DNA of 64,000 nucleotides. Origin: an uncultured Bacteroidales bacterium. Lineage in GTDB: Bacteria > Bacteroidota > Bacteroidia > Bacteroidales > Porphyromonadaceae. The DNA lies in NCBI GenBank assembly GCA_902489445.1, contig CABTZX010000001.1, forward strand, positions 38,606-102,605, read 5' to 3'. This document shows, in pieces, positions 20,214-38,292 of the stretch; the stretch's first letter is position 1, and each line of letters starts with the position of its first letter. A model generated the notes under the pieces. That model saw nothing but the letters and a program-made list of their open reading frames with translations, searched no databases and was not told the DNA's origin. A program made the translations under genes and the position numbers.

Positions 20214-20280
20214 GCCTACAGAACCCTTACTTTTATCGAGTATTTACCGCTGTCCGATAGGTAGCGCGCTCAGAGTTCTC

Positions 20281-20365
20281 CAAAGGTATATACGTTTCGT
20301 TCGAAAGGTATATACCTTTCCATCAAAAGGTATATAGGTATCGTTTGAAAGTTATATACCTTTTG
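20281..20365. repeat. palindromic-box repeat array, 4 copies, between the convergent mutS2 and pnp 3' ends
   Basis: caaaggtatatacgtttcg / ttcgaaaggtatatacctttcc / atcaaaaggtatataggtatcg / tttgaaagttatatacctttt. Confidence 0.85.
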
Positions 20366-20456
20366 TGGCTCGCCTTCCTGAAGTGATAAAAAGCGAAAGG
20401 GGAGTACGGGAAAAAGCTCCCGACTCCCCTTTGAACGTATCCTTCGTTAGAGGAAA

Positions 20457-22673
20457 TTAGTCTTCAAAACGGCGACTCCCGTTCCGGTGTTCACCACGAT
20501 GTTCTCCATCGCGATTGGTGCGCGGCCGGCGAGCGGGACGCTCCGGTTCCGTCCAATCCTCCGGTTTGGGAAGGAGGGAGCGGTGAGACAGACGATACTT
20601 GCCCGTTTTAGGATCAATTTCTAAGAGCTGAACTCTTATGCTATCGCCTTCCTGCAAGCCGGTATCCTCAATCTTTTCAAAGCGACGCCAATCAATTTCG
20701 CTTATATGTAGCAATCCGTCCTTACCGGGCATAAATTCCACAAACAAGCCGTAAGGCATCACGCTGGTTACCTTAGCATCGTAGATTTCACCAACTTCCG
20801 GTACCGCCACTATAGCCTTAATCATTGCCATAGCCTTATCTAATGCGGCTTTATCGGAGGAGGCCACTTCAACACGTCCTTCGCCTTCGGTTTCTTCTAT
20901 GCTAACGCTTGCGCCGCTCTTTTCTTGAATGCCCTGAATAATCTTACCACCGGGGCCAATGATGGCACCGATAAATTCCTTAGGTACAGTGAAGCATTCC
21001 AAGCGTGGTGCATTGGGCTTCAGATCGGCACGAGGCGCCGGCAGAGCTTCTTCAATCTTTCCGAGGATGTGCATACGTCCTTCGCGAGCCTGTGCAAGTG
21101 CCTTTTCAAGGATATCGTAGCTCAATCCATCCACCTTAATATCCATTTGCGTGGCGGTGATGCCCTTTTCGGTACCGGTTACCTTGAAGTCCATATCGCC
21201 CAAGTGGTCTTCATCGCCGAGAATATCGCTCAAGATGGCGTAATTCTGCCCCTTGTTTTCACTGATTAGCCCCATGGCAATACCTGAAACAGGGCGTTTG
21301 ATGGGCACACCGGCATCCATCAGTGCGAGCGTACCTGCGCAAACTGTTGCCATTGAAGAGCTACCGTTACTTTCAAGGATATCGCTCATTACGCGAACCA
21401 CATAGGGGTAATTATCCGGAATCATATTCTTCAATGCGCGCAAGGCAAGGTTGCCGTGCCCGATTTCACGCCTTCCAACAGCGCGCCACGCCTTTGCTTC
21501 GCCCGTGGAGAAGGGAGGAAAGTTATAATGAAGCAGGAAGCGTTCCTTGCCATGATTAAGCGGATCGTCCACAAGTTTCTCGTCGTCCTTGGTTCCTAAG
21601 GTAACTGTGGAGAGAGATTGCGTTTCGCCTCGCGTGAAAATAGCGCTTCCGTGAGGCATTGGCAGGCAGCTGGTTTCAATCCAAATCGGGCGTATTTCGT
21701 TGGTTTTACGTCCATCCAAACGCTTACCTTCATCCAATACGGCACGACGCATCGCTTCTTTTTCCACATCGTGGTAGTAGCGATCGATCATCATTGCCTT
21801 GGTTTCCAGTTCTTCTTCCGTAAAGGCTTCTTTGTATCCCTCTAACAATGCTTCAAAAGCATCTGTGCGTTCTTGCTTTCCGGTACCGGAAGTGGCAATT
21901 TCGTATGCTTTTTGGTAACATTTGTCGTGTACATCTTTGCGAAGCTCTTCATCGTTTGTTTCGTGACAATAGGCGCGTTTTTCCATTTTGCCTACTGCTT
22001 CGGAGAGCTCGAGCTGTGCTTGACACTGCTTTTTAATAGCTTCGTGTGCCTGTTTGATGGCTTCCAGCATCTCAGCTTCGCTTACTTCTTTCATTTCGCC
22101 CTCTACCATCATGATGTTATCGAGGGTAGCAGCCACCATTAGGTCTATATCCGCCTTTCCCAACTGAGGTGCCGTTGGGTTGATAACCCACTCACCATCA
22201 ATGCGTACGATACGTACTTCGCTGATGGGACCTTCGAAAGGAATATCGGAAACCGCAAGAGCCGCTGAAGCAGCCAAACCTGCCAATGCATCGGGAAGAT
22301 CTTCTTCGCCCGCCGAGAAGAGTACTACATTAACGAAAACTTCAGCGTGAAAATCGCTCGGAAAGAGCGGTCTCAGTGCACGGTCAATCAGTCGGGAGGT
22401 AAGAATTTCATAATCCGATGATTTGCCTTCTCTGCGCGTAAATCCGCCGGGGAACCGTCCCACTGCCGAGAACTTCTCTTTATAATCTACCTGTAAAGGC
22501 ATAAAATCCACATCCGGAGCCGCATCCTTTGCAGCACACACGGTAGCCAGAAGGACCATATTGCCCATTGTTACCGTCACGGCACCATCGGCTTGCTTAG
22601 CCAATTTCCCCGTTTCGATCTTTATGGTTCTACCATCGCCAAGATCGATCAGCTTTGTTACGGGTTTTACCAT
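20457..22673 (-). CDS. pnp: polyribonucleotide nucleotidyltransferase (PNPase)
   Basis: 738 aa. Two RNase PH domains, KH and S1 domains, and an Arg/Gly-rich C-terminal tail. Confidence 0.95.
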
Positions 22674-22746
22674 ACTTAATTCGTCTAAATCTTTATTTCA
22701 GTTCTTTTCTTGGTTACAAAGGTAGCCAATTAGCCCGATATGCGTG

Positions 22747-23433
22747 CTAACCGAGCCGAACGGCCTGGAGTACTTGTCGCTTGCCACTTGTGCCGGGGAG
22801 TCGCTCTACTTTATATCCGAGCGCTTGTAATGTTCGGCGTAGCGTACCCTTTACCGTGTACGTAACAAAGAGCCCTTCAGACGGTTGCGCGGCTGCTACA
22901 CGGCTCAATGTCGGCTCGCTCCACAGCTCAGGAACTACGTCCGGCGAAAAGGCGTCGTAATATACCACATCAAAGCACTCATTTGCAAAGCGCGCTTTAC
23001 GGAAGTTTTCGTGCCGTTTCTCCAATTGAAAGAACGGCGTTAGCGCAGTCGTTTGCCCCCAAGGTGCCGTATACAGCGCACGAAGTAGCTCCTCGTCCGT
23101 TGAGGGAAAGCTCAGTTGCTCCCATTCTCTTTGCCGAAGCGGGTAACGCTCGTAGGAAGTATATGTAACGTGTATCCCCAGCTTTGGGGCTTCCATAGCG
23201 GTCAATAGCGCATTAAGCCCTGTGCCGAAGCCCATTTCCAGAATGCGCACGTGGTTCGCATCGGGATGTGTTCGGCAAAAGGCAAGGAGCCCGTTTTGTA
23301 CAAATACGATACGGCTCTCTTCAATGGGACCATAAGTAGAGTGAAAGGTTTGATGATGCCTGCGATCCAGAAAGGTGACTGACCCCTCATCGGTAGGTAC
23401 GGCAATACGAGGTTTCCGAAAAAGATGGAACAT
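22747..23433 (-). CDS. MnmC-type (methyltransferase-domain only, DUF752-like) tRNA 5-methylaminomethyl-2-thiouridine methyltransferase
   Basis: 228 aa. SAM motif ILEMGFGTGLN and a DAFSP motif matching the MnmC methyltransferase domain. No FAD oxidase domain is attached. Confidence 0.65.
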   Translation of the reverse strand: MFHLFRKPRIAVPTDEGSVTFLDRRHHQTFHSTYGPIEESRIVFVQNGLLAFCRTHPDANHVRILEMGFGTGLNALLTAMEAPKLGIHVTYTSYERYPLRQREWEQLSFPSTDEELLRALYTAPWGQTTALTPFFQLEKRHENFRKARFANECFDVVYYDAFSPDVVPELWSEPTLSRVAAAQPSEGLFVTYTVKGTLRRTLQALGYKVERLPGTSGKRQVLQAVRLG

Positions 23434-23472
23434 AGTTATAAGACACTTGAGTAAGGGGTGAAAAGCTACTCG

Positions 23473-23560
23473 GAAAAAGGTATATACCTATCAATGAAGA
23501 TGTATATACCTTTCGAACGAGATGTATATACCTTTCGTTTGAAAACTATATACCTTTTTA
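23473..23560. repeat. palindromic-box repeat array, 4 copies
   Basis: gaaaaaggtatatacctatc / gaagatgtatatacctttcg / cgagatgtatatacctttcg / gaaaactatatacctttt. Confidence 0.85.
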
Positions 23561-23699
23561 TAAGGGGCAATAGGATGGGAAATAAAGGTGCATAGACAGA
23601 CCTTCGCCCTAAAGTATCGGAGCATATCGGAAACTCCCGATACGCTCCAACACCCTCATAGGGGCACAATACTTCCGTAAGAAAGGTTTTCTTCCGGTT

Positions 23700-25853
23700 C
23701 TATGCGTCCTGTTCTTCTTCCGCTTCGTGTTCTTTCAGCAACTTATCCTGAACATCGGTCGGTACCAGCTCATAAGAAGCGAATTTCATCGTGAAGCTCG
23801 CTCTGCCTCCGGTTATGGAGCTGAGTGCGGTAGCATAGTTGCTCAATTCCTTCAGCGGAACTTTAGCCAACAACTGTTCGTAACCCTTTTTGCTGTTCAT
23901 CCCCATTATGATGGCGCGCCGTCCTTGGAGATCGCTCATCACATCACCGATGAATTCGGCCGGTACGTCAACTTCTACGTCATATACCGGTTCCAAAATT
24001 TTGGGAGCAGCTTCGCGGAACGCCGTACTAAAGGCATTTCGTCCGGCAAGCATAAAGGAAACTTCGTTGCTGTCTACCGGGTGCATTTTGCCGTCATATA
24101 CAATTACGCGTACATCACGGGCATAGCTTCCGGTAAGCGGGCCGCGCTCCATCTTTTCCATTATACCTTTTAGGATGGCGGGCATAAAGCGCGTATCAAT
24201 GGCACCGCCTACAACGCTATTTACGTATACTAACTTACCGCCCCATTCCAGAGGTATTTCCTGCGTATCGCGTGGCGTTATTTTGAATTCCTGCGAGCCG
24301 AAGCGGAACGATTCGGGTAGTGCTTTCCCCTCTTCGTAAGGCTCTATAATGAGGTGTACCTCACCGAATTGCCCTGCACCGCCCGATTGCTTCTTGTGCC
24401 GATAGTCCGCACGTGCCGGTTTGGTAATCGTTTCGCGATACGGAATGCGTGGTTCGCTGTATTCAACGGGTATCTTGTCGTTGTTTTCAATACGCCACTT
24501 CAGCGTACGAAGGTGAAATTCGCCCTGACCGCTTACGATGGTTTGCCGCAATTCCTTAGATTGTTCCACAATCCAGGTGGGATCTTCTTCGCACATACGG
24601 TGCAACACTTCGCTCATCTTTTCCGAATCGGACGCATTAACCGCCTTGATGGCGCGCCGATACTTAGAATTGGGGAATTCAACCTCCGGATAACGGTAGG
24701 AAACCTCCTTATCGTTTAGCGCATCGCCACGCCGAACATCCTTCAATTTTACGGTAGCTCCCAAGTCACCGGCTTCGAAGGATTCCACACGCTCACGGAT
24801 CTGCCCCGCGGTAACGTAGAGCTGTCCGATGCGTTCCTTGCTGTCCCGATTGCTGTTCGTTAGGTCCATCCCTTCCTTCAGTGTGCCTTGCATCACCTTA
24901 AAGAAAGATACTTCGCCGATATGCGGCTCTATGGTAGTTTTGAAAAAATAGAGACTTACCGGCTTGGAGGCATCCGGAGCAACCGCCTCACCTTCAGTAG
25001 TTACCGGCGATGTGGCTTCCGTTACACGCGGTGCCAATAGTGCCAATAAGCTCATTAAGCGGCGTACGCCCATATTCTTCATACCGCATGCGGTAAACAC
25101 CGGGTACATTCCTCCGGTGAGTACCCCTTTGCGCATGCCTTGGACAATCTCTTCTTCCGTGAGCGAACCGGCTTCAAAGAAGCGCTCCATAAGGTTTTCT
25201 TCGTGTTCGGCTGCCGATTCGATGAGAGCCTGACGTAACTCTTCTGCCTGAGCCAACTCAGATGCCGGAATATCCAATACTTCCGGCGTGCCACCTTCAG
25301 GACCCCATTGGTACATCTTCATGCTGAGCACGTCCACCATTTGGTTCTTGCTGCCGGCAACCGGGAACTGAATTTGAACTAATTTACCGCCAAAACGCTC
25401 CTTTAGTTGGGATAACGTAGCCTGAAAATCAGCTTTTTCGTCATCGGTCTGGTTAATCAGGAAAAAGATCGGTCGCTTCTTTTCTTCTACATATCTTAGT
25501 TGGTTAATCAGACCCACTTCTATCCCGTACCGCGCATTGACTACTGCTAAGCTGCTGTCCGTCACATTTAATGCCGAAACGGTACCGCCGATAAAGTCAT
25601 CGCTACCGGCGCAATCAATCAAATTCAGCTTCTCGTCCTCCCAAGCAACGCTAAAGAGGGTCGAAAAAACCGTATAGCCATATTCCTTTTCTACGGGGAA
25701 GTAGTCGCACACCGTATTGCCTTGACTCACTTCGCCACGACGTTTTATCACGCCGGCTTCGTAGAGCATCGTCTCAGCGAGAGTCGTTTTGCCCGAACCG
25801 GCACTGCCTAAAAGAGAAATGTTGCGGATGTCCGCTGTTTTGTACACTTTCAT
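23700..25853 (-). CDS. elongation factor G-family GTPase (EF-G paralog)
   Basis: 717 aa. The G1 motif SAGSGKTT and the five-domain EF-G architecture are present, but the N-terminus is divergent (MKVYKTADIRNISLLG), suggesting EF-G2 or a ribosome-associated paralog rather than canonical fusA. Confidence 0.8.
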   Translation of the reverse strand: MKVYKTADIRNISLLGSAGSGKTTLAETMLYEAGVIKRRGEVSQGNTVCDYFPVEKEYGYTVFSTLFSVAWEDEKLNLIDCAGSDDFIGGTVSALNVTDSSLAVVNARYGIEVGLINQLRYVEEKKRPIFFLINQTDDEKADFQATLSQLKERFGGKLVQIQFPVAGSKNQMVDVLSMKMYQWGPEGGTPEVLDIPASELAQAEELRQALIESAAEHEENLMERFFEAGSLTEEEIVQGMRKGVLTGGMYPVFTACGMKNMGVRRLMSLLALLAPRVTEATSPVTTEGEAVAPDASKPVSLYFFKTTIEPHIGEVSFFKVMQGTLKEGMDLTNSNRDSKERIGQLYVTAGQIRERVESFEAGDLGATVKLKDVRRGDALNDKEVSYRYPEVEFPNSKYRRAIKAVNASDSEKMSEVLHRMCEEDPTWIVEQSKELRQTIVSGQGEFHLRTLKWRIENNDKIPVEYSEPRIPYRETITKPARADYRHKKQSGGAGQFGEVHLIIEPYEEGKALPESFRFGSQEFKITPRDTQEIPLEWGGKLVYVNSVVGGAIDTRFMPAILKGIMEKMERGPLTGSYARDVRVIVYDGKMHPVDSNEVSFMLAGRNAFSTAFREAAPKILEPVYDVEVDVPAEFIGDVMSDLQGRRAIIMGMNSKKGYEQLLAKVPLKELSNYATALSSITGGRASFTMKFASYELVPTDVQDKLLKEHEAEEEQDA

Positions 25854-26466
25854 GGTACCTTACTACCTAATATTTTGTTACTTTCAATTAGCTCTTTCCT
25901 GCATTTACCAAGGAATGTGCCGGCATGCCATAGGCTCTGATTTGCGCTTATAGGTATGCTTTTGGGTGCCTATTCCCTGCAAATGCGCTGCAAGTTACCA
26001 AATTATTCTCAATGACACAACAACTGCGTAATAATTGACACAATGCTACATTTTATTACCCATCCTGCGTGCTATTTGCTAAGACGTTCCTTTGCACATG
26101 TAAACTATGAAGAATGACTAAACGCATCTATTCCCATCTCTTGTGACTGATCTTATTAGTGATAAATAAGAAAGAGGGTATTGTGTCAATTATTTGTTAT
26201 CCGTATTTGATAGATGATATTCATCATTAAAGGAATGCCTCCTTTTCGTCTAACTGTAGCAATGAGGCCTATGCGAAAAGGGTCGGTAAGATATACTCAC
26301 AATACCCCAATTTTTGATGGACAGCTTCCTCATAAAAGATGATTTCTATATTTCTATCGTTTGCACGATGGTGCGGATTCATAGCAAAAAAACAAATTTC
26401 CGAGAATAGGAGTGATCAAATAATAGAAACAAACTTAATACTGCTTTTACATACAATAGTTATTGA

Positions 26467-26474
26467 TAACTTTG
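26467..26474 (+). promoter_or_regulatory. candidate -7 element TAACTTTG upstream of the giant ORF
   Basis: Matches TAnnTTTG, about 36 nt upstream of the ATG at 26510. Confidence 0.25.
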
Positions 26475-26509
26475 GGCAAGAAATGTTAGGGGTGTAGTGT
26501 GACATAGTT

Positions 26510-29500
26510 ATGTGGAGGTTCAATGAAAATATAAAAGAAATAAGAGCTAAGGCAGAAAGAGATTTTACTAATAGAGTTTTTTCCACTATAGCTCCATTCT
26601 ATAATACTAAAATAACTGCTGGGAACTTAAAAGAAATAAGAACTAAAGTAGAGGATGATTTTACTAGAAGAGCTAATCATGTAGCTGGGTTATTAGGAAT
26701 AAATCTAATTGGTATCACTACTAATATTGAAAACTTTGGTTTAGAAAAAGGTAAGACAGCTGCTGAAGCTATGGCTAATTTATCCTATACTTTTGAATTA
26801 GAAGGTCCTTCAGAAAAGACAGCATTATTTGCTTCATTAGTTAATGACTTAGGATATGAACCGCAAGAAACAGTTATAACTTCTAAAGTAGTTAACTCTG
26901 CTGAAGAAGCTGATGCTGTACAAATAACCTACCCATTAGGTAATAAGAGTAGAAAAGAAACATTAGAACTAATAAATAAACTAGGCATAGAAAATTATTC
27001 TATTGACCCTAGAACTAATGTAATAACTGTCACTGTATTTAATCAGAAGAATGGTAAACTTACATTGACAGCAGAAGAAGCAGAAAAACAAAGAACATTA
27101 AGTGAAGAATTATATGGTAAAGAAAGAAGTGGATGGAAGTGCTCCGCAAAATTCCTCAAATCAGATTATCTCAATACGAGAGTTCGTAGAGAAATTTATG
27201 CCAGAGAGCTTGAAAGAGATGGAAACAGAGGAAAGCAACAAGACATACGTCTTCATAAGAAACTCAAAGCAGGATTAAAAGAAACTACAACTAGTCTACA
27301 AGATACAAGTAGACAAAGAGGGAGTCAATTCTTTGGAGAACACGATGCTATATCTAGTAATATTGTAGTAGTAAATGAGAGTAATTCAGGTGAAGAAAAC
27401 TCAATAACAAGAAGAAATACTGAAAAGGAAATAAAAGAAAATGCTAGAATAAGTATTCCCTTAGGTAAAAGCATTGGTGATATTATCTCAGGGAGAAGAA
27501 CAGCTATAACTATAGAAAGAAATAATGCAACTAAGCGTGATTTTTACATCTTAAAAGATATAGAGGCTGGGCAAATATTCTCTATTAAAGATAACTCTGG
27601 AAAAACAGTTTTTGTTAGAGCCACAAAAAAACTACATAAAGTAAAGAGAGAAGGTGTTGGTGATGAATGGGCTGAAAGAAACTTTGGTGACACAAGAGAA
27701 AGAGAAATCTTTGCTACAAAAGATAATAGAGAGTTTTCTGAAGTAGAGTTCGAGTATGTAGGTGATAAAATAGATGCCTTATTAAATAAAGATAAAATAC
27801 TAGAAGAAATTAAAAGTATATTTGAGAGAGCTCTAGATAATGGTTCTCGGGATTTTAGATTAGATTTTGCTAGTGGAATAAGTGATCCTGATGTAATAAA
27901 TAGAGTTGTAGAATATATCAACAGTGTAGCTGATGATTTTGGATGTATTCCTTTTAATGTTATATTTCCGGAGAATTTAAATACAGGTAAGCTCAATATA
28001 ACAGCACAAGAAGAAACAGAAAGTGATACCACAACTAATAGTTCAGTATCTATAGAACAAAGAAGAAAACTTAATCAGACATTTGACCCTAAGAGGAGAA
28101 AAGCTAGAGCTAACCTTATAGCTAGATATTTTAGTAATTACTTGGATGCTAAAGTAGCAAAATTTGATAAGAGAGTACAAGAAGCTTTAACTAGTGATAC
28201 CGTATCTGAAGAAGATAAACAAGAATTAAGAGCTTTTCTAGCTACATTGGAAGCTACAGGAAGTAAGAGACTAGAAGTATTACGGAGAATAGGACCTAAA
28301 AAGATATTAGAAAAGATAAGAAATTCTTTAAATAAAACACTTAATGATACATTAAGTGGTAATAGAGAGAAAATTATAGAGGGAAAGAAAAAAAACGCTC
28401 TTAGGAAAAATCCAAATCTTACAGAAGAACAATTAGAAGCTGATGCTAATAATTTTATTAAAAACATAGTAGAAAAATATCCTGCTATAATAGAGAATTT
28501 TACAGCTCTAGCTGAGGAAGCTATTCCTATGATTAATAAAAGAGAGCAAATAACTATAAATGAAGATAGTGTTCTCTCTTATATTAACTCTCAGGAAAGT
28601 ATGTTTCAAGAAGAGTTTAATGAAGATGGTACTGAAGATATTGTAGACATGGAGGAACAACCTAAAGATCATTTTCTCTCTGACTTTAGAACTACTTCTT
28701 CACAAGAAACAATGTCTATGAGAGTTAGGAAGAGATTAGGTGAAATAATAAAAATAAATCCTGATGGTACTCCTGTATTAGATGATATGTATATGGGTGT
28801 ATATCTAAATGAAGATGAAGTATATTCTACACTTAAAAGAGATTTGTCTAGTATGGTCACTTCTGAGGATATGATTCCTTTATTAGAGGAATCAGCTAAA
28901 ACTAAACCTTGGGTAAAGCAAGTAATACAAACAGTAGAGAGAGATCTTTTATTTAAGACTCAATTATACCACAATATGAGAAGTGATTTCCAAGAATATT
29001 GGGTACAAGAAAAGTCTAAGGAATCTAAAGGATTTAATACATTACCTATTAATAGAAAATCAGGTATATGGCATATGCTTGAATCTTGGAAGAATAATGT
29101 AGAAGGTGATAATGTATTAACTACTACTAATACTAATGATAAATATGGTAGTATCTATGATAATAATGGTAATATTATTAAAGAGAATATAAAGAAAGCA
29201 AAAACATCATTTTTAAATATAAGACGAATATTAAGGGGTATAAAAGATATTAATGAGTTAGATAAAAATTTTTATAGAGATGTCACTAATTTATTAAAAT
29301 CTTTTGGAATAAATGTGGGGATTGATACAGTAGAACAAACAATAAAAGTAAATAAACCTGAAGAAGTATATGCTGGAATTAGTCCTCTGGTAATAATTAC
29401 AGATGTAGTAGAAAAAGATAATATAACTACTACTAATAATTTTTATAAAAAATTCAGCACAGCCTATTCTAATATAGCTAAATTCTTTGCTCCAGCTATG

Positions 29501-32500
29501 GGATCAGTGATGGAGGACTCTGCTAGACAGAATGGTAAAAACTATCAATCTTATGTAGCTCCTTCTTATCTAGGTAAACTGATGAAAAGTATTAAGGATA
29601 AAAATACTGAAGAGGGTACTAGGTTTCTAGATGAGAATTACAAAGCTTTTGGCTGGTTTTATAATAAAAAAGCTGATTTCTTTTTTAGTGATTGGATAGA
29701 TAAATTATATAAAAATGAAATCTTTAATCGTGAAAAAGGAATGAGATTTAGAGATCTTATAGCTCATAAGACAGTATTAAATCAAGATGATAAAAACTAT
29801 GTAGATTGGGGTAAAAAGGATGTCATTCTATCTCTATTAACTGAGTTTCAAAAAGCTGATGTAGATGGTACAGCTTGGTATTATGTACCTCTATTTAGTG
29901 ATGCTCCCTCTGCTGATTTTATTAGGTTTGTGAAGTATGGTGATGAAGTTGGTGATTTTAAAGAAGGAGATAAACCATATAAAGAGGCTATAAAAGAAAA
30001 ACTCCGTGGAGTTGCAATGCAGGAATTTGAAAGAATAGTTCTTGTAAAAGAAAGAGATGCTATTAGAAATAGTGAAACAGCTACTGCTGAAGAAAAAGAA
30101 AGAGTAGGAGCTATAGATAACTATGATATAAAGAGGGATAAGAATGGTAATATAGTAAAGAAAGGTGGAGCAGAGTTTAAGTTCTTTCCTCAATTTAATG
30201 AATGGGGAGTATTTGATGCCATTAGTGACTTCCTAGAAGATCCTAATAATTCTGGTGAATATCCTTCAAAACTTGTTGATAGGTTTGTTGAAAGATACTT
30301 GGAAGAAGGTCTTGATAATGCTCTTGAAGTATGGAAGAATGAACAAGTATTTGAATTAGATGAATATGGTGGATATAAAAACTTTGATATAAGCACAGAG
30401 TTAGATACTGATACTCTTACGGATATTTTAAATTCTTTAAGTACCGATTTATATGATGTAAGGTATGGTCCTTTTGTAGAATTGTCTACAGAAGATATAG
30501 ATATACTATCTAAAGTTTATGGTATTTATGATGATTTTAACAAATATGTAATTTTCAATAAAAACAAAATTGATGATAGAGTTGTAAACAAATACATAAA
30601 TGACTTTAGAACAGCCGTAAAAGAATTACCTAATTCAGAAGTATTTGATGCTATAAGAAAAGACTCTATTGAATTAAGTGAATTATCACCCTTAGTAAAA
30701 TTCCTCAGAAACTACTACTACAATAATGCCCTAGCTACTTCTCAAATTATTCAACTAACTAATACTGACTTAGCTTACTTTAAGGACATGACTGATTTCT
30801 ATAAGAGAAATAAACAGAACCATGCTCCTTCACTAAGGCTAGATACTAGTGCAGTAAATCCCTTTACAGGAGAAAAAGTAGGTAGAAAAGTAGAAAGAGC
30901 CATCACTATTAAAGATGAATATATTCCTTCTACTGGTGTAGAAGATATAAGAAAAATTCTTACAGAAAGAGGAGTAAGTAAGACAGAAATAGATTTTATC
31001 TGTAGTCAATTTAGAAACGTTAATGTAACTGATGCTCAATCTTATAGAAGTCTAGACTCTTATAGGGCTGTTAAGTGTATGGTGGGTGATTGGACACAAC
31101 AAATGGAGACTGCCTATAATAATATACTTAATGATAGATGGACTGCTACTGATATGATGACAGTGTTTAATACATTAAAGCCTTATGTATACACACAGAA
31201 CTCTGTAGATAGTGGTGTAGCTGGTGGAGGTAAAATAAAAGTTCCTATACAACATAAGAACTCAGAGTTTCTTCTTCTGGCTACTTATAATCTAGTATCT
31301 GGTGCTCTAGGAAGAGCAAAGAAACTGAAGATATTGGATCAATTTATGAGAGACAATCAAATTGATGTAGTTCACTTTGAGTCTGTAGTAAAAGTAGGTA
31401 AGCAAGGTGCTATAGATGTAAATCAATTTGATGAAAATAATCTTGATGGTTTTAGAGAGTACCTAGAAAAAGCTATACGCACTGAAGATGGAAATTATAA
31501 TCCACAAGTAGTTCATGAAATAAGCTATGAGGATTATGGTATTCAGATGGAAACAGGACAGCATATAGTAGACACTAATAATCTTGTAGGTACTCAGGTA
31601 CAAAGATTAATAGGGGGAGACATAAGTGAGTCTGCTGTATTAGAACTAGATCAAGTAGATGATTTATTACTCTCTGATATGGGTGATGATGAAGTAATAC
31701 CCACATTAGGAGTTACTGCTGGTTCTTTGAGAGCTCAATCAGGTATAAGTGTAGAACAGTTTAGAGAGATAAAAGAACTTAGAGATTATGCAAGACATGC
31801 TAAGAACCTTTATGAAGACTATGCTGACTTGCAATATAAAAAGGGAGAAAAGATAGATCAGAATAAACTAGATCAACTTAAATCTGAGTACGAAACTGCA
31901 AAAGAAAAGTATGAAGCTAAAAGAAAGAGTACAAAGTCTGGATTAAGTAAAAAGCAATGGCATACTTTATTTAATGCTCTAATGGTAGAGAATATCATAC
32001 AGGGTTATAATAAAGTAGATAAACTATTCTCTGATAAAAAATCTATAAGTGATGTACTCAAGAGACAGATTAATTCTAGTCCTAGATATAGCAGGGATTT
32101 GCTTGATGCTTGTAGTCTCGATGAGAATGGAGAGTTCTTAATTCCTCTTGTTGATCCTACTAATAGTGATAGAGTACAAGCCCTTATGGCTAGTATAATG
32201 AGAAAGGAGATCACTCAACAAAAGATTAAAGGTGGTGCTCTATTCCAAGCTTCTTCTTTTGGTCTTACTGATGAACTAAATATTATTTATGAGGGTGAAG
32301 GTGAGAATAAAAGAATTAAAGAGTTTGAGTGCTATATGCCTGCTTATTCTAGAGAATTCTTTGAACCATTTATGAATTCTAAAACTCATGAACTTGATAT
32401 TAGTCAGCTACCAGATGAACTAAAAGAAATAGTTGGGTATAGAATACCTACAGAAGATAAATATTCTATGATGCCTTTAAAGATTAAAGGCTTCTTACCC

Positions 32501-35206
32501 TCTTCTATGGGTACTGCTATTATGCTTCCTGCTGAAATTACTACTATCACAGGTTCAGGATTTGGCATTGATGAATTACAATTAATGCTTCCTGAGTTTG
32601 ATATTATTGAATATAACAAAGGAAAGGCAAGAGCTGCATATAAAGAGCAATATAAACTCAGCGCAAGAGATAAGTCACTAGCAACTAACTCAGATATACC
32701 TAGTTTTGAAGATTGGTTTGAGGAGAATAAAGAAGATTTCAAATACAATAAACCTAAGTTCTCTAAAGTAAAATATGATTTCTCTAAGTCTCCCAAAGAG
32801 AATGGTACTAGAGCTAGAAATAATCTTTACTTAGATTTAGTACGTAGTGTACTTACTAATTCTGATACTGCTGATAAGATATTTAAAGGAGTTACTCCTA
32901 CAGAACATCATAGAGTAGGTAGAATTAATACTATACTTTTAAATGCTACTAGAAAAGAAATAGCTGAAGCTTTAGGATGTAGAGAATCAGAAGCTGTAAA
33001 GAAGTTATTACAAGTAGATGAGAGTACAGCTACTAACTTAGCAAAGAAATTAAGTCCTAAGATGGATCCACTATCACCTATATCTCAATTAGTTTCTCAC
33101 CAAGCTAATATGGTAGGACAAAAGATGATTGGGGTATATGCAATTAATCATGTGCAGAATGCCATTCTTCAATATGCTGAAGATACTGCCTTCACTCATC
33201 CTTTACTTCTAAATGGTAGATCAAGGAACAAACTAACTGAAATGTTAGATAGTAGTGGTGGTGCTAGAAACTTTATTACCAGGAACATAGCAGGGTATCT
33301 TTCTATGGCAGTGGATAATAGTAAGGAACAAATGCTTGCTACTCATAATCAGAATAACTTCACTTGTGGTGTCACTATGGCTCTCATAAGAGTGGGTTAT
33401 CAACCTAAGGAAGTAGCTCTATTACTGCAACAGCCTATCGTAAGAAGAATGACTGATGCATACTCTAGCAATGAATATGGAGAATATGCATCAGGAAAAG
33501 ATGTAATAAGTAATGTAATAGAAGATCTACAGAAAAAGATTTTAAGCATAGATCCCAGCTTTTCTTTTACAGGTATGACAGGTGAGTCTTTATCTGCATG
33601 GAATACAGCTGGTGCGTACTCAATGGAAAGGCTTGCGAATAATATAGTTCAGGATACAGAAAGAAGAAAAGCACATATAAAAGGAGAAGATCTAAATTCT
33701 TTAGTAGATCAATATAAAGTAGCTTTACTTTTCAGGAACTTATATTCTAAAGGAGAAGAACTTTCAAACTTTGTAAATAGAACTAGACCTGATCAAATAA
33801 AAAATGCAGCAGGACCTACTATAGCTCAAACACAAGAAAATGAAGCTAAGTATGTAGATGCTTATAGAAAATCTCAACCTGTAAAGAGAGGTGATGTGAT
33901 AGTTACTCCTCCTGTAGCTATTACTGGAGCTAATATATTTAGCATAACAGATAATATAGAAAGTATTACTGAGGATGAGCTAAGAAAAATGTCTATGGAA
34001 TCTTCTATACCCTATCTACAAGCTCAGTTCTTGTGTGGTATACAAGGTGCTAAAAAGTTCTATGGTAAGTTCTTTCCATACTATAATGAGAATATCATTG
34101 CAGCAAAGGATAAAGTACTTAGTCTAGCTAAATCTAATCATATTAGTGCTAAAGAAGTAAATGATATTTATCAAGAACTTAGTACTTATGTATTATCAGG
34201 TGCAGAGTTCTTGGCAGGAGATACAGCTTTAATGGGTGATAAAAGATTCTTGAATGGTTATGAAGAAGTAAAGGATTACTACATAAATGAATTTCCTGAT
34301 GACTTTCAAGCTCTCTTAAAAGAGGCAGAAAAGGATGAAAATTCAGACCTGAAGAGCAACTTTTTTATAGATAATCTTACTGTAGCTTTTAATAGAAAAG
34401 TCAACTCAAAAGTCATTGAATTAAATACAGAAGGTAAGATGACTAGAGAAACAAGGGAATCTATACAAAGAGATTGGGAAGATCTACTTTATTCAAGTAA
34501 TCCTAAGTATGTAAAACTAGCTCAAGCTCTATTTACCTATAGTTACTTTAGAAGTGGATTAGCTTATACACCTAAGGGGTTTGGTCACTTAGCACCTTCC
34601 TCTATAAAAACTAGTGTTCCTGGTTTTGTGGATGCAATTAAATTATTAGATGATAAGAATTTAAACTTTGATGAGTTTGCCGAACAGTTTATCATTAATC
34701 ATAGAAATAATAACAAATTAGTTGCTAATGCCTATAGCTTAGATAAAAGAGAGTTCATCAACACTGTTAATGGTAAAAATGAAATAAAGACTGAGCTTTT
34801 GTTTGACACTTCCGGAGAAAATAGTGGGAAGAGATACAAGTCTATCATAAAAGAGAGATATTATTCAGGGGGAAAGGTACGGTATCTATATTCTCCGTTT
34901 ATAAAGAAGACTATAAATAGTAGAGATTTTGTTTATACACTTACAGAGTATACTGATAATACAGTGAAATATAGATTAGTACAGAATCTTGGTATGCCAT
35001 CTGTGTTTAAAGAATATAGCTTTGGGAAAAACTACGATAAAATAGACAGTAGTCTTATAGCTAATATTAATAATACTGACCTCTCTTGGAATAGACGTAC
35101 TATGAGAACCATAGATGTTTTACGTAAAAGTAGTGGAATGAAGGTATATGGCTATTATGTAAAAGAAGATGTGGCTGCAGTAGTAGAGAATAGTCAAAAA
35201 GAATAA
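26510..35206 (+). CDS. giant hypothetical protein (2898 aa), cytoplasmic-type, horizontally acquired
   Basis: 8.7-kb ORF with no stop codon in an AT-rich context, which is essentially impossible by chance. No signal peptide or TM segment. Lys/Glu/Asn-rich, with a coiled-coil stretch around residue 1750. No Walker A, DPPY/NPPY, DxDGD, DEAD/H or polymerase motifs found by eye. Confidence 0.85.
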   Translation: MWRFNENIKEIRAKAERDFTNRVFSTIAPFYNTKITAGNLKEIRTKVEDDFTRRANHVAGLLGINLIGITTNIENFGLEKGKTAAEAMANLSYTFELEGPSEKTALFASLVNDLGYEPQETVITSKVVNSAEEADAVQITYPLGNKSRKETLELINKLGIENYSIDPRTNVITVTVFNQKNGKLTLTAEEAEKQRTLSEELYGKERSGWKCSAKFLKSDYLNTRVRREIYARELERDGNRGKQQDIRLHKKLKAGLKETTTSLQDTSRQRGSQFFGEHDAISSNIVVVNESNSGEENSITRRNTEKEIKENARISIPLGKSIGDIISGRRTAITIERNNATKRDFYILKDIEAGQIFSIKDNSGKTVFVRATKKLHKVKREGVGDEWAERNFGDTREREIFATKDNREFSEVEFEYVGDKIDALLNKDKILEEIKSIFERALDNGSRDFRLDFASGISDPDVINRVVEYINSVADDFGCIPFNVIFPENLNTGKLNITAQEETESDTTTNSSVSIEQRRKLNQTFDPKRRKARANLIARYFSNYLDAKVAKFDKRVQEALTSDTVSEEDKQELRAFLATLEATGSKRLEVLRRIGPKKILEKIRNSLNKTLNDTLSGNREKIIEGKKKNALRKNPNLTEEQLEADANNFIKNIVEKYPAIIENFTALAEEAIPMINKREQITINEDSVLSYINSQESMFQEEFNEDGTEDIVDMEEQPKDHFLSDFRTTSSQETMSMRVRKRLGEIIKINPDGTPVLDDMYMGVYLNEDEVYSTLKRDLSSMVTSEDMIPLLEESAKTKPWVKQVIQTVERDLLFKTQLYHNMRSDFQEYWVQEKSKESKGFNTLPINRKSGIWHMLESWKNNVEGDNVLTTTNTNDKYGSIYDNNGNIIKENIKKAKTSFLNIRRILRGIKDINELDKNFYRDVTNLLKSFGINVGIDTVEQTIKVNKPEEVYAGISPLVIITDVVEKDNITTTNNFYKKFSTAYSNIAKFFAPAMGSVMEDSARQNGKNYQSYVAPSYLGKLMKSIKDKNTEEGTRFLDENYKAFGWFYNKKADFFFSDWIDKLYKNEIFNREKGMRFRDLIAHKTVLNQDDKNYVDWGKKDVILSLLTEFQKADVDGTAWYYVPLFSDAPSADFIRFVKYGDEVGDFKEGDKPYKEAIKEKLRGVAMQEFERIVLVKERDAIRNSETATAEEKERVGAIDNYDIKRDKNGNIVKKGGAEFKFFPQFNEWGVFDAISDFLEDPNNSGEYPSKLVDRFVERYLEEGLDNALEVWKNEQVFELDEYGGYKNFDISTELDTDTLTDILNSLSTDLYDVRYGPFVELSTEDIDILSKVYGIYDDFNKYVIFNKNKIDDRVVNKYINDFRTAVKELPNSEVFDAIRKDSIELSELSPLVKFLRNYYYNNALATSQIIQLTNTDLAYFKDMTDFYKRNKQNHAPSLRLDTSAVNPFTGEKVGRKVERAITIKDEYIPSTGVEDIRKILTERGVSKTEIDFICSQFRNVNVTDAQSYRSLDSYRAVKCMVGDWTQQMETAYNNILNDRWTATDMMTVFNTLKPYVYTQNSVDSGVAGGGKIKVPIQHKNSEFLLLATYNLVSGALGRAKKLKILDQFMRDNQIDVVHFESVVKVGKQGAIDVNQFDENNLDGFREYLEKAIRTEDGNYNPQVVHEISYEDYGIQMETGQHIVDTNNLVGTQVQRLIGGDISESAVLELDQVDDLLLSDMGDDEVIPTLGVTAGSLRAQSGISVEQFREIKELRDYARHAKNLYEDYADLQYKKGEKIDQNKLDQLKSEYETAKEKYEAKRKSTKSGLSKKQWHTLFNALMVENIIQGYNKVDKLFSDKKSISDVLKRQINSSPRYSRDLLDACSLDENGEFLIPLVDPTNSDRVQALMASIMRKEITQQKIKGGALFQASSFGLTDELNIIYEGEGENKRIKEFECYMPAYSREFFEPFMNSKTHELDISQLPDELKEIVGYRIPTEDKYSMMPLKIKGFLPSSMGTAIMLPAEITTITGSGFGIDELQLMLPEFDIIEYNKGKARAAYKEQYKLSARDKSLATNSDIPSFEDWFEENKEDFKYNKPKFSKVKYDFSKSPKENGTRARNNLYLDLVRSVLTNSDTADKIFKGVTPTEHHRVGRINTILLNATRKEIAEALGCRESEAVKKLLQVDESTATNLAKKLSPKMDPLSPISQLVSHQANMVGQKMIGVYAINHVQNAILQYAEDTAFTHPLLLNGRSRNKLTEMLDSSGGARNFITRNIAGYLSMAVDNSKEQMLATHNQNNFTCGVTMALIRVGYQPKEVALLLQQPIVRRMTDAYSSNEYGEYASGKDVISNVIEDLQKKILSIDPSFSFTGMTGESLSAWNTAGAYSMERLANNIVQDTERRKAHIKGEDLNSLVDQYKVALLFRNLYSKGEELSNFVNRTRPDQIKNAAGPTIAQTQENEAKYVDAYRKSQPVKRGDVIVTPPVAITGANIFSITDNIESITEDELRKMSMESSIPYLQAQFLCGIQGAKKFYGKFFPYYNENIIAAKDKVLSLAKSNHISAKEVNDIYQELSTYVLSGAEFLAGDTALMGDKRFLNGYEEVKDYYINEFPDDFQALLKEAEKDENSDLKSNFFIDNLTVAFNRKVNSKVIELNTEGKMTRETRESIQRDWEDLLYSSNPKYVKLAQALFTYSYFRSGLAYTPKGFGHLAPSSIKTSVPGFVDAIKLLDDKNLNFDEFAEQFIINHRNNNKLVANAYSLDKREFINTVNGKNEIKTELLFDTSGENSGKRYKSIIKERYYSGGKVRYLYSPFIKKTINSRDFVYTLTEYTDNTVKYRLVQNLGMPSVFKEYSFGKNYDKIDSSLIANINNTDLSWNRRTMRTIDVLRKSSGMKVYGYYVKEDVAAVVENSQKE

Positions 35207-35793
35207 GCAGAGTACATCAGATGATATTAATACCTCTAAAGCAAGGAGACCCCAATTGTCCAAAATAACACCAACTGGTGTATATAATAGGATAGGCGGT
35301 TCAAAGAGTAATTCTACCCTTAGTGATAAAGATTAGAAAAACTCTGGATGGACTATGAAGGAACTTAATAGCTTTGATGAAGCAAAACTAAGATGTCTGC
35401 TGAAGAAGATATAGATGTAGCCTTTATGGTAAAATCGAAAGAAAAGATAGAAAATGCTGAAGGTAACTTGGCTTGTGATTAATTGATAAATAAGAATGTG
35501 GGATTAAGTTGTGCAATAATATCCAGAGTAAAAAAACAGACTTAGAAGATCAGACGTATAAAGTAACCTATGGGCTTCCAATTTATTCAAAGAATATAGA
35601 TTGGGAGTTAGTTACAAAAACTATTCAGTTCCTCCAATTTAGTGGAGAAATATAAATGTGAGTATAACGAGGTGTAAGCATATTTCTGACTTTCGGGGAA
35701 TCTTTTCCTCTCATCTTAACAATAAAGTATCTAATGGGAGCGAAATAAGTATTATATTTGTGGACAGATATACGTAAATCCATTGGTGGCAAT

Positions 35794-36240
35794 ATGAAAA
35801 AAGTCTATAGATCTGTGCGTAGCCTTCTCTCTACAGGCGCCTCCTTGCTTTTAGGATGGTTTGGTTTTTCCGGTTGTCTCATTATAGGTGGTGCTGAGTA
35901 CGGTACTCCTACGGTTAATTATGAGTTCAAGGTGCACGTAAAGGATCAGAACGCAAAACCGGTTCCCGGTCTACAGGTATCTGTTTCTGAAACATATTAT
36001 CAGGAAAAGCCACTCACCGATGCAGATGGAAATGTGCAGTTGAACGGTAGATATACCGGATTTTACGGAGATCAAAAGGTTGGCTTGGGTATACGCGACG
36101 TTGATGGCGAACAGAATGGTGTGGTAGCGGATACGCTGATCAACGTGGATGTGAAGGAAAGTGACTTTGTAAGCAAAGGAAGAGGCTGGAATAAAGGCAA
36201 GATCGTAAAGGATATAACTCTTGAAGTTAAACGGAAATAG
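35794..36240 (+). CDS. putative lipoprotein with a carboxypeptidase-regulatory-like beta-sandwich, paired with the radical SAM gene
   Basis: Signal peptide plus lipobox (GWFGFSGC). The Met at 35794 is the likely start. GC content is host-like. Confidence 0.55.
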   Translation: MKKVYRSVRSLLSTGASLLLGWFGFSGCLIIGGAEYGTPTVNYEFKVHVKDQNAKPVPGLQVSVSETYYQEKPLTDADGNVQLNGRYTGFYGDQKVGLGIRDVDGEQNGVVADTLINVDVKESDFVSKGRGWNKGKIVKDITLEVKRK

Positions 36241-36265
36241 CTATAGACAAATTGGTTCAAATATC

Positions 36266-36526
36266 ATGAAGCGTAGTAGCATTTCTTTTCTCGGAAATAT
36301 AGTGGTGGCGGTAGCGCTCGTGCTCATCGGGTGCTTGGGATTTATGAGCTGCAAGTCACGCACATTTCGTTCGGAGAAAAGAGATGAACAAAATGTCCCA
36401 TCCGATTCGACAACTTTCAGAAAACCACGACCGATACACGGAGGCGTGGTAGTAGCGATGTACGGAACTCCCTATACTCGTTTTGAAGCAAAGAAGGTTC
36501 CTCGTCCAGAAGAAGCTGAAGAATAA
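36266..36526 (+). CDS. small putative lipoprotein (86 aa)
   Basis: Signal peptide plus lipobox (VLIGCLGFMSC) and a charged C-terminal tail. Lies between the first lipoprotein and the radical SAM gene. Confidence 0.4.
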   Translation: MKRSSISFLGNIVVAVALVLIGCLGFMSCKSRTFRSEKRDEQNVPSDSTTFRKPRPIHGGVVVAMYGTPYTRFEAKKVPRPEEAEE

Positions 36527-36556
36527 GCGGATACTGAGATTTTCCGGCAAACTGAT

Positions 36557-37693
36557 ATGATGCATCGCAAGCATTCCTCTATGGGTAAAAAGCTACTTCG
36601 TCCGTCGCTCAAACAGCGATTGGCACTGAACTTGTACCGCGTGGTTCGCGATGAAAATATACATCAGCATCCGATGAATACGCTCTTTTGGGAGTGTACC
36701 CTGCGGTGTAATCTGCATTGCGCGCACTGTGGAAGTGATTGTCGCGCTGATAGCGGCGTAGCGGAGCTTTCTGTTCCCGAATTCATTCGCATCATCGATC
36801 GGTTAACTCCCCATGTCAATCCCAATCAACTTTTGGTGATTTTCACCGGTGGAGAGGCGTTGGTGCGGCAAGATATCGAGGAAGCCGGACTGGCACTCTA
36901 CCATCGCGGTTATCCGTGGGGCATTGTGACCAATGGGATGCTTTTGAGTGCTGAGCGTTTGGAAAAGCTACGAAGTGCCGGGCTCCATACCGCAACTGTG
37001 AGCTTGGACGGCTTTGCCGAAGCGCATAATAGGCTACGAGGTCATCCGCTAAGCTATGAGCGCGCTTGGAATGCCATACAACTGCTCACGAAAGCGGAAG
37101 ACATTGTGTGGGACGTGGTTACCTGCGTTAATCCGATGAATTTCGATTCACTTCCCGCACTGCGCCAACATCTAGTTAATGCCGGAGTGAAGTGCTGGAG
37201 GCTCTTTTCTATTTTTCCCGTAGGGCGAGCCGCTGAAAATGAGCAACTCCGTCTTTCGGACAGCCAACTCTACCAATTAATGCAATTCATTGTAGCCACT
37301 AACCGGGAGGGGCAAATTGAGGCGCAGTATGGGTGCGAGGGCTATTTGGGAGCCTTTGAGGGAAAGAGTCGCAAGCAGTTTTACCAATGTCGTGCCGGTG
37401 TGAATATAGCCTCCATTCTTTGTGATGGTTCCATCAGTGCCTGCCCAAGCATACGCTTCAATTATAAGCAGGGCAATGTGCATCATGATGACCTTTGGAC
37501 CGTGTGGCAAAACGGATTTACCGCTTTTCGCGACCGATCATGGGCTAAGAGCGGTCCCTGCGCATCCTGCAAAAGCTGGAAGTTTTGTTTGGGAAATGGC
37601 ATGCATCTTCGGGATGACGACGGAAAGTTATTGGTATGCCATCTCAGTCGACTCGAAGCCGGAGCTGAAGCCCTGCACGCCTCCAAGGAGTAA
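36557..37693 (+). CDS. radical SAM enzyme with a C-terminal SPASM (additional 4Fe-4S) domain
   Basis: CNLHCAHC (CxxxCxxC) radical-SAM cluster motif near the N-terminus and a Cys-rich C-terminus (CPSIRF...CASCKSWKFCLGNG...C). This is the architecture of anSME and peptide-maturase-type SPASM enzymes. Confidence 0.85.
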   Translation: MMHRKHSSMGKKLLRPSLKQRLALNLYRVVRDENIHQHPMNTLFWECTLRCNLHCAHCGSDCRADSGVAELSVPEFIRIIDRLTPHVNPNQLLVIFTGGEALVRQDIEEAGLALYHRGYPWGIVTNGMLLSAERLEKLRSAGLHTATVSLDGFAEAHNRLRGHPLSYERAWNAIQLLTKAEDIVWDVVTCVNPMNFDSLPALRQHLVNAGVKCWRLFSIFPVGRAAENEQLRLSDSQLYQLMQFIVATNREGQIEAQYGCEGYLGAFEGKSRKQFYQCRAGVNIASILCDGSISACPSIRFNYKQGNVHHDDLWTVWQNGFTAFRDRSWAKSGPCASCKSWKFCLGNGMHLRDDDGKLLVCHLSRLEAGAEALHASKE

Positions 37694-38292
37694 TACGCGT
37701 TGTTTCTCTCTATCAACCACATTGATTAGCCATTTCAATTCTTTCGCTCCTCCTACTTATTATATAGGTGGAAGCGTGATCTTTTACCGAGAAAAGAACG
37801 CTCTTTATGCGAAGAAATAGCAGAGAACTTCGCTACCCCCGTATGCACGCTGTTACGCCATGGTACATTCCTCAAATAAGGCGGATTATAGCGCGCAGTT
37901 TAGTGCAGAATATACTGGTATGAGACGCAGTTATATGACCAAATGCTACACGTAATAAAAAAAGACAGGCCAATCGATCGCTCAATCAGCCTGCCGAGGG
38001 CTTTACATCAACGGCGGGTGAACCAATACCATCTTCTGCCCTCACCGGCAAAGATAGCTAACTCCTATCACTTTTGTCCATCGCCATAGTGGCAGACTAA
38101 CTACCAATCGCTTTGAGAGCTTAGGCAACGGATACAATACAGCTAACATTTCGCCATATATCGTGGCTAAGGTTGCGCTTAATCATACCAGGTTCTGCTG
38201 CGGCAGGACACGTCTTGGCCAACTGCGATGCGGGTCGCCTTGGCTCGTCCGAGGCTTCCTGTCTCTATTCTTGCTCGTAGTTTTACCCTCCT

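Follow-up and report, generated by a model that had tools for sequence, protein, structure and literature searches.

A lone chromosomal homolog of the virion RNA polymerases of crAss-like phages with a degenerate catalytic motif in an uncultured Bacteroidales bacterium

The locus and its giant gene

This study concerns a stretch of 64,000 nucleotides (nt), hereafter the window, from contig CABTZX010000001.1 of an uncultured Bacteroidales bacterium (assembly GCA_902489445.1), and within it a single giant open reading frame (ORF) at 26510..35206, which starts with ATG and codes for 2898 amino acids (aa); this ORF and, unless noted otherwise, the parts of its island described below lie on the forward strand. 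Its product is almost certainly a chromosomal homolog of the single-chain, two-barrel virion RNA polymerases (vRNAPs; RNAP, RNA polymerase) of crAss-like phages, the family of crAss001 gp50 and phi14:2 gp66, and its catalytic motif is degenerate. To the left of the gene lie genes for an EF-G-type GTPase, a methyltransferase, PNPase and MutS2, and to the right those for a small Ig-like protein, a radical-SAM/SPASM enzyme and MscL.

The giant gene is located in an island of low GC content (0.28–0.35, ca. 0.32) that extends from approximately 26.0 to 35.8 kb between flanks of 0.48–0.53 on both sides, and it is the only island of such kind in the 64-kb window. No other ORF longer than 162 aa overlaps the gene on either strand, and with a stop probability of 0.088 per random codon at the gene's base composition, 2898 open codons would arise by chance with a probability of about 1e−116. 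The codon usage is foreign to the host (per 1000 codons, giant gene vs. host: AGA 42 vs. 3, AAT 59 vs. 15, ATA 40 vs. 14, CGC 0.3 vs. 28), and the GC content at third codon positions (GC3) is 0.18–0.19, compared to approximately 0.5 in the host. No 19-residue window of the protein resembles a transmembrane segment (maximum Kyte-Doolittle value 1.25), and Lys, Glu, Asn, and Asp together account for 31% of the residues. An initial annotation of the window, made by reading the sequence, had described the ORF, the improbable length of its open frame, the GC contrast, the foreign codons, the lack of a transmembrane helix and the richness in these four residues, all of which was reproduced here; the coiled-coil string it had pointed out is present as well, at residues 1752–1806 and slightly off the 1740–1800 that it gave. 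No sign was seen of an assembly chimera, which it had also considered; the same junctions were found in at least eight independent assemblies. The arrangement of the EF-G gene followed by the giant gene recurs in independent assemblies from at least eight samples and two host species.

Relationship to the virion RNA polymerases of crAss-like phages

Searches of the whole giant protein with Pfam, PHROGs, PADLOC, and NCBIfam profiles returned nothing significant, and phmmer against PDB gave 6vr4 (phi14:2 gp66) as the sole match, with an E-value of 4.9e−20 over four collinear segments. This entry is the DNA-dependent RNA polymerase that the crAss-like Cellulophaga phage phi14:2 packages in its virions. 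When residues 1331–2363 were compared by tblastn with 50,697 phage records, 99 of them matched, all crAss-like and labelled 'putative RNA polymerase' (best E-value 2e−144). BLASTP against crAss001 gp50 (2412 aa) placed residues 514–2854 on residues 84–2332 of gp50 at 33–35% identity, i.e., the body of the protein (28049..35071) is homologous end to end to gp50, with the four collinear segments also matching gp66. The sequence blocks for the two barrels, the bridge helix and the trigger loop are conserved in comparison to gp66. An exhaustive phmmer search of 1.84 billion representatives sized the family at 2516 clusters, and the closest relative with an active motif is 48% identical in the core.

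An AlphaFold2 (AF2) model of residues 1380–2340 reached moderate confidence (predicted local distance difference test score, pLDDT, 62; predicted template modelling score, pTM, 0.35), and a Foldseek search of this core model against PDB returned 6vr4 as the sole significant match (E-value 5.9e−19, prob 1.00), but with a template modelling (TM) score of only 0.20. A local fold similarity to 6vr4 is supported by the model, while the global model is unreliable, its TM score being low.

Going by the alignments, residues ~514–2898 are the full-length counterpart of the crass-phage virion polymerase and the first ~510 residues are an addition. This N-terminal extension (residues 1 to ~510; 26510..28039) is absent from crAss001 gp50 and from a lineage with the motif SFNYD that is described below. 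Residues 21–230 (26570–27199) form a movable module that was found at other positions in giant proteins of phages: in P0009 it is located at residues 2845–3044, inside the polymerase, between the segments aligned to residues 1845–1933 and 1936–2033 of the query, and in other phage giants (P0016, P0017, and P0037 among the module carriers) it lies upstream of the polymerase body, beside ART-PolyVal and PIF1-helicase domains.

The initial annotation had seen no recognisable enzymatic motif, had listed a phage-derived virion or injected protein, a polyvalent protein and a defence or toxin module as possible origins, and had proposed profile searches, structure prediction and a look for crAss-like encoded homologs. 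The Pfam and PADLOC profiles stayed silent, while AF2 with Foldseek led to 6vr4 and the homologs among phage records proved to be crAss-like encoded. The lack of an enzymatic motif is literally true, as two of the three catalytic Asp are replaced, and the DxDGD/DFDxD motif missed by eye is indeed not there, the homologous position reading GFGID; a recognisable family nevertheless exists by full-length sequence homology, and it is a known one, that of the crAss-like vRNAPs, which escaped only inspection by eye and the profile libraries. The suggested phage-derived virion or injected protein agrees with this homology, whereas a polyvalent protein or toxin does not fit, as no extra enzymatic domain is present. 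The defence reading of the gene is plausible but unproven.

Active site and conserved residues

Catalysis by two-barrel polymerases depends on metal-binding Asp residues. The gp66 motif 1361-DFDID-1365 aligns with residues 2017–2021 of the giant protein, which read G2017-F-G2019-I-D2021 and are followed by Glu (E2022) instead of the usual Lys; this degenerate motif (32558..32575) replaces the D-F-D-[IV]-D-K of the phages, with the Ile at position 4 and the third Asp (D2021) retained and the Asp at positions 1 and 3 lost. According to the gp66 structure paper, all crAss-like enzymes have Ile or Val at motif position 4, and Ala in place of any single one of the three Asp abolishes RNA synthesis. 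GFGIDE is common to the window and six orthologs of 83–92% identity, i.e., it was present in every allele found. Among distant homologs aligned across the motif, D[FY]D occupies positions 1–3 in 31 out of 32 (the exception being P0039 with DYNIN), and a motif census recovered DFD[VI]DK in 134 of 187 family members. Because two of the three Asp are replaced, and in view of the gp66 mutagenesis and of what is established for two-barrel polymerases, the giant protein is very probably catalytically dead and is predicted to be unable to polymerise.

Conservation was scored on an alignment of 30 phage-type sequences, in which 88 core columns are ≥ 85% conserved. The chromosomal clade retains 71 of these, most of the changes being conservative, and 14 of the 17 strictly invariant columns, the lost ones being D2017, D2019, and P1683. 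A conserved block on the first-barrel side (residues 1405–1698; 30722..31603), probably corresponding to the first double-psi beta-barrel (DPBB) as judged by offset from the gp66 domain map, keeps the family-invariant residues K1432, R1433, D1508, G1526, P1558, K1583, G1630, and Q1696, while P1683 is changed to Gly. The coiled-coil-like segment (residues 1752–1806; 31763..31927) would, by alignment offsets, correspond to the inter-barrel connector, which in gp66 comprises residues 1095–1238. The second-barrel block around the former active site (residues 1895–2035; 32192..32614) is the most conserved part of the protein, with an allele identity of 0.99. The regions aligned to the bridge helix and the trigger loop of gp66 are retained too, the latter segment (gp66 residues 1598–1636) being located at 33230..33349 and keeping the family-conserved D2269.

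Genomic setting

No integrase, transposase, terminal repeat or replication gene was found in the island, no tRNA within 10 kb of it, and no flanking direct repeats beyond chance-level matches of ≤ 19 nt. The island carries the giant gene alone, without adjacent gp49/gp47-type 'RNAP subunit' genes or other phage genes, and a search for remnants of neighbouring crAss genes in the flanks found none; in crAss001, cr128_1, and cr85_1 (Steigviridae), the polymerase gene adjoins two further giant 'RNAP subunit' genes in the gp50-gp49-gp47 arrangement. The locus has the characteristics of neither a prophage nor an integrative element, and the gene does not reside in a Crassvirales transcription block. 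Clusters of the host genes occur on contigs of up to 733 kb (the contig of the window itself has 118 kb). The second host is a clearly different species (locus L001), with a synonymous divergence (dS) of 0.8–2.2 in the flanks and the same left junction. Close relatives of the giant gene were absent from 185,579 GTDB species representatives, and no relatives were recovered from 2.9 million IMG/VR viral contigs, where a positive control, an active-motif relative, was found in two 103.5-kb viral genomes. A search for an empty site in the same species was negative, as gene-less contigs differ in both flanks.

The unit common to the two host species comprises the leader, the gene and a short tail, because their homology spans from ~535 nt before the ATG (from ~25970) to ~100 nt past the stop codon (to 35303). 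The leader (25970..26509, ~535 nt), delimited in an alignment of seven loci, is non-coding and part of the island; its sequence is conserved across both host species, in contrast to the adjoining host intergenic DNA (25854–25969), even though the synonymous sites of the two species themselves are near saturation. No Rfam family matched in the leader, no sigma-70-type promoter or terminator signal in it rose above chance, and a search of the island flanks for structured RNA or terminators found none. The -7 box of promoters in Bacteroides has the consensus TAnnTTTG (the Bacteroidetes -7 promoter box), and TAACTTTG at 26467..26474, 35 nt upstream of the ATG and identical in all seven loci, matches it, which makes it a candidate promoter box of the giant gene. 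A leader inverton, built on a 15-nt perfect inverted repeat (26030–26044 / 26180–26194), was also considered and rejected, as the arms are not conserved in L001 and L082 and the orientation is the same in 7 out of 7 loci. At the other end, the 3′ tail of the island (35207..35303) ends where homology with the second host species stops, and an AT-rich spacer without assigned strand (35304..35732), free of remnants of neighbouring crAss genes, separates it from the next genes.

These form a cassette at 35733–38205 that encodes an Ig-like protein of 148/160 aa, a 101-aa ORF and the radical-SAM/SPASM enzyme. The initial annotation had hinted at a tie between the giant gene and this cluster, a functional link that was rejected, since each occurs without the other: on contigs encoding an identical radical-SAM protein the cassette adjoins rimP-nusA-infB in the absence of the giant gene, and L001 has the giant gene without the cassette. 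The cassette is an independent module, and either it moved or the genome was rearranged at that place. Where it is located between rimP-nusA-infB and queG, it is 96–98% identical.

Regarding the host itself, the EF-G-type protein (host flank 17748–25853) is at most 65% identical to any of the 185,579 GTDB representatives, the best matches being metagenome-assembled genomes (MAGs) of Paludibacteraceae and Prevotellaceae, and the host-gene clusters have approximately 200 members in public metagenomes. The host looks like a fairly common Bacteroidales lineage without a representative genome.

Selection and allele diversity

The ratio of nonsynonymous to synonymous divergence (dN/dS) was computed with the Nei-Gojobori method over ~2890 codons for the ten pairs of five alleles, and the whole gene gave values of 0.22–0.28 in all ten. 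Most constrained are residues 1915–2035 around the degenerate motif, with a dN/dS of 0.01–0.03 at a dS of ~0.29 and a protein identity of 0.99. At the other extreme, four hypervariable patches carry in-frame indels and have dN/dS values of ~0.5–0.7: residues 901–960 (29210..29389; pairwise allele identity 0.44, pooled dN/dS 0.61), residues 1261–1374 (30290..30631; in-frame indels, identity 0.39–0.65, dN/dS up to 0.71), and residues 2334–2394 and 2455–2513 (33509..34048; dN/dS 0.52–0.65). Within one host species, the gene (dS 0.20–0.30, dN 0.045–0.084) is more diverged than its flanks (dS 0.05–0.15, dN 0.001–0.009), whereas between the host species it is less diverged (dS 0.42 vs. 0.8–2.2 in the flanks).

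The giant gene is under purifying selection, which is strongest at the degenerate active site, yet it evolves faster than its flanks within a species, and it is likely to be maintained for a function. Because it is more diverged than the flanks within species and less so between species, its allele genealogy appears uncoupled from that of the host, which points to exchange between lineages together with the upkeep of diverse alleles. In the last ~150 codons (34760–35206), synonymous divergence among alleles drops to ~0.035, compared to 0.2–0.7 elsewhere in the gene, suggesting either that recombination near the ends has left the gene with a mosaic history or that the nucleotide sequence itself is constrained.

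Frameshifted and broken alleles

The only run of eight or more A in the gene is an A8 tract at 28388..28395, which is A7 in other assemblies. The A7 version splits the gene into products of 641 aa and 2225 aa, the latter starting anew at M674, and it was seen in assemblies otherwise identical to the window. In the 90% cluster of the window protein there are five distinct 641-aa products, all with the same frameshift and four of them differing from the window at 45–58 residues, together with eight distinct backgrounds that read through. In one other allele the frameshift is located at a second A tract, ten codons further downstream, and yet another allele has a 1-nt deletion at codon 604; the three independent frameshift sites fall within codons 558–628. 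The sequences tied to the A-tract variation are L085/L086/L088, P0271, P0274–P0276, P0278, and P0042. The A-tract frameshifts may have a biological cause, be it phase variation, −1 frameshifting on A AAA AAA or toleration of a split gene, or they may be homopolymer errors of the assemblies. The copy in L098 (10001–18689; ERR14760551), with 88% nt identity, has several frameshifts and two in-frame stops, while all flanking genes are intact, and in some strains such as this one the giant gene is a true pseudogene.

Degenerate motifs in other lineages

Other degenerate triads were sought among the best 150 representatives, where SFNYD (P0044), GFDAD (P0093), GFDYN (P0112), GFDYD (P0129), and DFSIG (P0103) were found, each of these lineages retaining every other invariant residue. 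Pfam had no match in three of these proteins, and no IMG/VR relatives were found for P0044, P0103, and P0129, the three lineages tested. Four of the lineages (P0044, P0093, P0112, and P0103) are lone genes in chromosomal contexts of Bacteroidales type. For instance, P0044 is a low-GC gene between GC-rich flanks, with cluster members on contigs of up to 177 kb, P0093 has bacterial-type neighbours, and P0112 lies between ArsP/DsbD/efflux genes and Tricorn protease/UvrD/TamB on a 228-kb contig of a Candidatus Limimorpha (Bacteroidales) MAG. P0103 adjoins the gene for ribosomal protein S1 (rpsA) and has a host-like GC content; its 13 intact variants, on contigs of up to 223 kb, all read DFSIG. The motif is likewise fixed in six full-length variants of a second degenerate lineage. 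Paired contigs compared for synonymous differences within the other degenerate lineages were identical.

In a neighbour-joining (NJ) tree, which is star-like and weakly supported, the clade of the window is sister to P0044, while P0112 and P0103 are placed elsewhere among active enzymes, and the nearest relatives of P0093 are active enzymes too. Because the degenerate lineages sit in separate places among active enzymes, the tree suggests that the loss of the Asp triad arose independently at least three times. Upstream of one P0093 copy (L104, 3393–4118) there is a gene for a weak Mrr/FokI-cleavage-like nuclease and a 2.3-kb stretch without a called gene, and the neighbourhood of this lineage may be of a defence type.

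Possible function and alternative explanations

A captured vRNAP of this sort would be an exapted pseudo-enzyme that makes no RNA but still folds, and that could still bind the partners of the phage enzyme, be it template DNA, the 'RNAP subunit' proteins or capsid/packaging partners. In the work on gp66, the injected vRNAP is the sole enzyme that transcribes the early genes of crAss-like phages, and because of this dependence a dead copy made by the host could act as a dominant negative. We tentatively regard dominant-negative interference with infecting crAss-like phages as the most likely mechanism, with two conceivable routes: (a) the host-made dead copy would compete with the few injected enzymes for the template or for partner proteins, or (b) it would be loaded into progeny particles instead of the active enzyme and render them non-infectious. 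The second route is attractive because newly synthesised gp66 takes a self-inhibited, packaging-ready form while it awaits packaging. Under this model, an arms race and the cost of expression would underlie the hypervariable patches, the exchange of alleles between lineages and the on/off frameshifts at the A tracts. The wider scenario, in which Bacteroidales captured a crAss-like vRNAP gene at least three times, disarmed it on each occasion and kept it as a single-gene, possibly phase-variable decoy immunity factor, is a possibility that we regard as doubtful.

Several observations weigh against interference. The link between degenerate motifs and chromosomes is drawn from five lineages, and a cluster member of the lineage P0129/P0235 (GFDYD, first Asp lost) is located on a contig of 95 kb, about as large as a crassvirus genome; should this contig belong to a phage, chromosomes would not be the only place where degenerate motifs occur. 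The closest active relative is only 48% identical in the core and no target phage can be named, while early gp66 transcripts have no common promoter motif, which leaves 'promoter competition' with no defined site. PADLOC-DB v2 gave only a sub-threshold match (PDC-M13B, E = 0.012) without any passing stretch, and the neighbours are housekeeping genes and not a defence island. The frameshifted and multiply broken alleles could mean that part of the population can do without the gene or is losing it, and a GC3 of 0.18 in a host with a GC3 of 0.5 suggests recent arrival or repeated re-import and not an old domestication. As for the dead site, there is a slight chance that the retained D2021, together with the new E2022, still binds some metal, and the AF2 models, being of low to moderate confidence (pLDDT 51 and 62), allow no structural statement on the cleft.

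Some of these points would suit a host function unrelated to phages, a less likely reading in which the protein is a large nucleic-acid-binding scaffold or regulator that reuses the cleft without catalysis. The strong purifying selection on the dead cleft agrees with this, as do the housekeeping neighbours and the lack of a defence-island context or PADLOC match, and the host-like GC of P0103 beside rpsA suggests a long residence. However, its absence from 185,579 GTDB species representatives, its often frameshifted or broken alleles, its hypervariability and its within-species divergence above the flanks are features of an accessory, conflict-type gene and would not be expected of a core cellular function. 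It is improbable that the gene is a mere relic that passed a filter, with fragments of crAss-like genomes entering chromosomes, active vRNAP being toxic and inactive copies persisting without function in slow decay. Toxicity would account for the degenerate motif in every chromosomal copy, and the multiply broken L098, several frameshifted alleles and a GC content without drift towards the host value are in line with decay. Yet a gene of 7–9 kb would mostly pass such a filter through frameshifts, stops and deletions, whereas at least four lineages have precise missense changes in the triad and retain every other invariant residue; ORFs of 2300–2900 codons are intact across alleles at a dS of up to 0.44 with a dN/dS of 0.22–0.28 (0.01–0.03 in the core), the DFSIG lineage has 13 intact variants, and open frames in such AT-rich DNA are soon lost (stop probability 0.088 per random codon). 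Exaptation is preferred over a toxicity filter because the inactivation consists of missense changes in the triad and ORFs of 2300–2900 codons stay open under purifying selection.

Two further readings appear still more remote. A minimal element, mobile or satellite-like, could exploit crAss-like phages and carry the gene as cargo, with the protein or its DNA travelling in helper particles, which we consider quite improbable: the foreign GC, the lower dS of the gene between species (0.42 vs. 0.8–2.2 in the flanks) and the leader and 3′ tail that travel with it would fit, but genes for an integrase, a transposase or replication are absent from the island, as are terminal repeats and a tRNA target, there is no relative in 2.9 million viral contigs, and the same left junction in both species fits homologous replacement better than site-specific mobility. 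Very improbable, finally, is a polymerase that is still active, whether DNA-dependent, RNA-dependent or primase-like, with a non-canonical metal site formed, e.g., by D2021, E2022, and a residue from elsewhere. The third Asp is kept, the phage Lys that follows it is changed to Glu in all alleles, and the remaining active-site residues as well as the bridge-helix and trigger-loop regions are conserved, all of which would speak for such an enzyme; against it, each of the three Asp of gp66 is individually essential, and the other lineages lose different Asp, including the third one (GFDYN, DFSIG), and do so without the Glu, which leaves no common alternative site.

Comparison with known systems

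Among the phages of the mammalian gut, Crassvirales dominate. A review of the group describes them as strictly lytic, with the giant virion polymerase as a hallmark that is treated as phage-only. No description of chromosomal or inactivated vRNAP copies was found in the full-text literature searched, although a prior description is possible, as subscription journals were mostly outside its coverage. With crAss001 gp50 and phi14:2 gp66 the giant protein shares end-to-end homology, the invariant residues of the barrel regions, the trigger-loop and bridge-helix regions, giant size and AT-richness; it differs from them by having GFGID instead of DFD[IV]D, Glu instead of Lys and an extra N-terminal module of 510 aa, and its gene is chromosomal, stands alone and is absent from viral contig collections. 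The protein should not be filed as a virion RNA polymerase, because it lacks the DFDxD site and its gene does not reside in a crassvirus transcription block, and is better classed as a chromosomal, catalytically degenerate derivative.

YonO, from the Bacillus prophage SPbeta, is likewise a phage-derived single-chain two-barrel polymerase whose gene resides in a bacterial chromosome, but it is active and belongs to a complete prophage, the late genes of which it transcribes. No similarity to YonO turned up in the searches made, none of which was a dedicated comparison. The gp66 structure paper reports that QDE-1-type RNA polymerases share the single-chain two-DPBB architecture and the connector, and proposes that they descend from a captured phage gene; a review on the recruitment of mobile elements mentions only this proposed phage origin of QDE-1. 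The captured copies of QDE-1 type kept their DxDGD site and catalytic role, whereas the giant protein lost its site, and neither phmmer against PDB nor Foldseek of the AF2 core model gave a direct sequence or fold match between the two. The polyvalent giant proteins of phages and conjugative elements are similar in size, and the module at residues 21–230 occurs in giants with ART-PolyVal, PIF1-helicase or PDDEXK domains, but in contrast to polyvalent proteins the giant protein has no enzymatic or LPD-type Pfam domain, nor any NCBIfam or PHROGs domain, and is not located on a mobile element.

A lone chromosomal vRNAP gene under selection, with a specific and convergent loss of the metal-binding triad, is unexpected; it opens the coexistence of Bacteroidales and crass-like phages to concrete tests and supplies naturally occurring active-site variants of an unusual polymerase family. 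If interference is the correct reading, it would represent a new principle of phage resistance, with a captured and inactivated virion enzyme as decoy. Virus-derived dominant-negative restriction is known from Fv1 in mice and from replicase-mediated resistance in plants. By analogy, these systems too have a captured viral gene that is kept, diverges fast and is proposed to block related viruses, although they involve other organisms and other proteins and interference by the giant gene is hypothetical; if it holds, the gene could be seen as a prokaryotic counterpart of the immunity that endogenous viral elements have given rise to, with the phages that are most abundant in the gut as its target.

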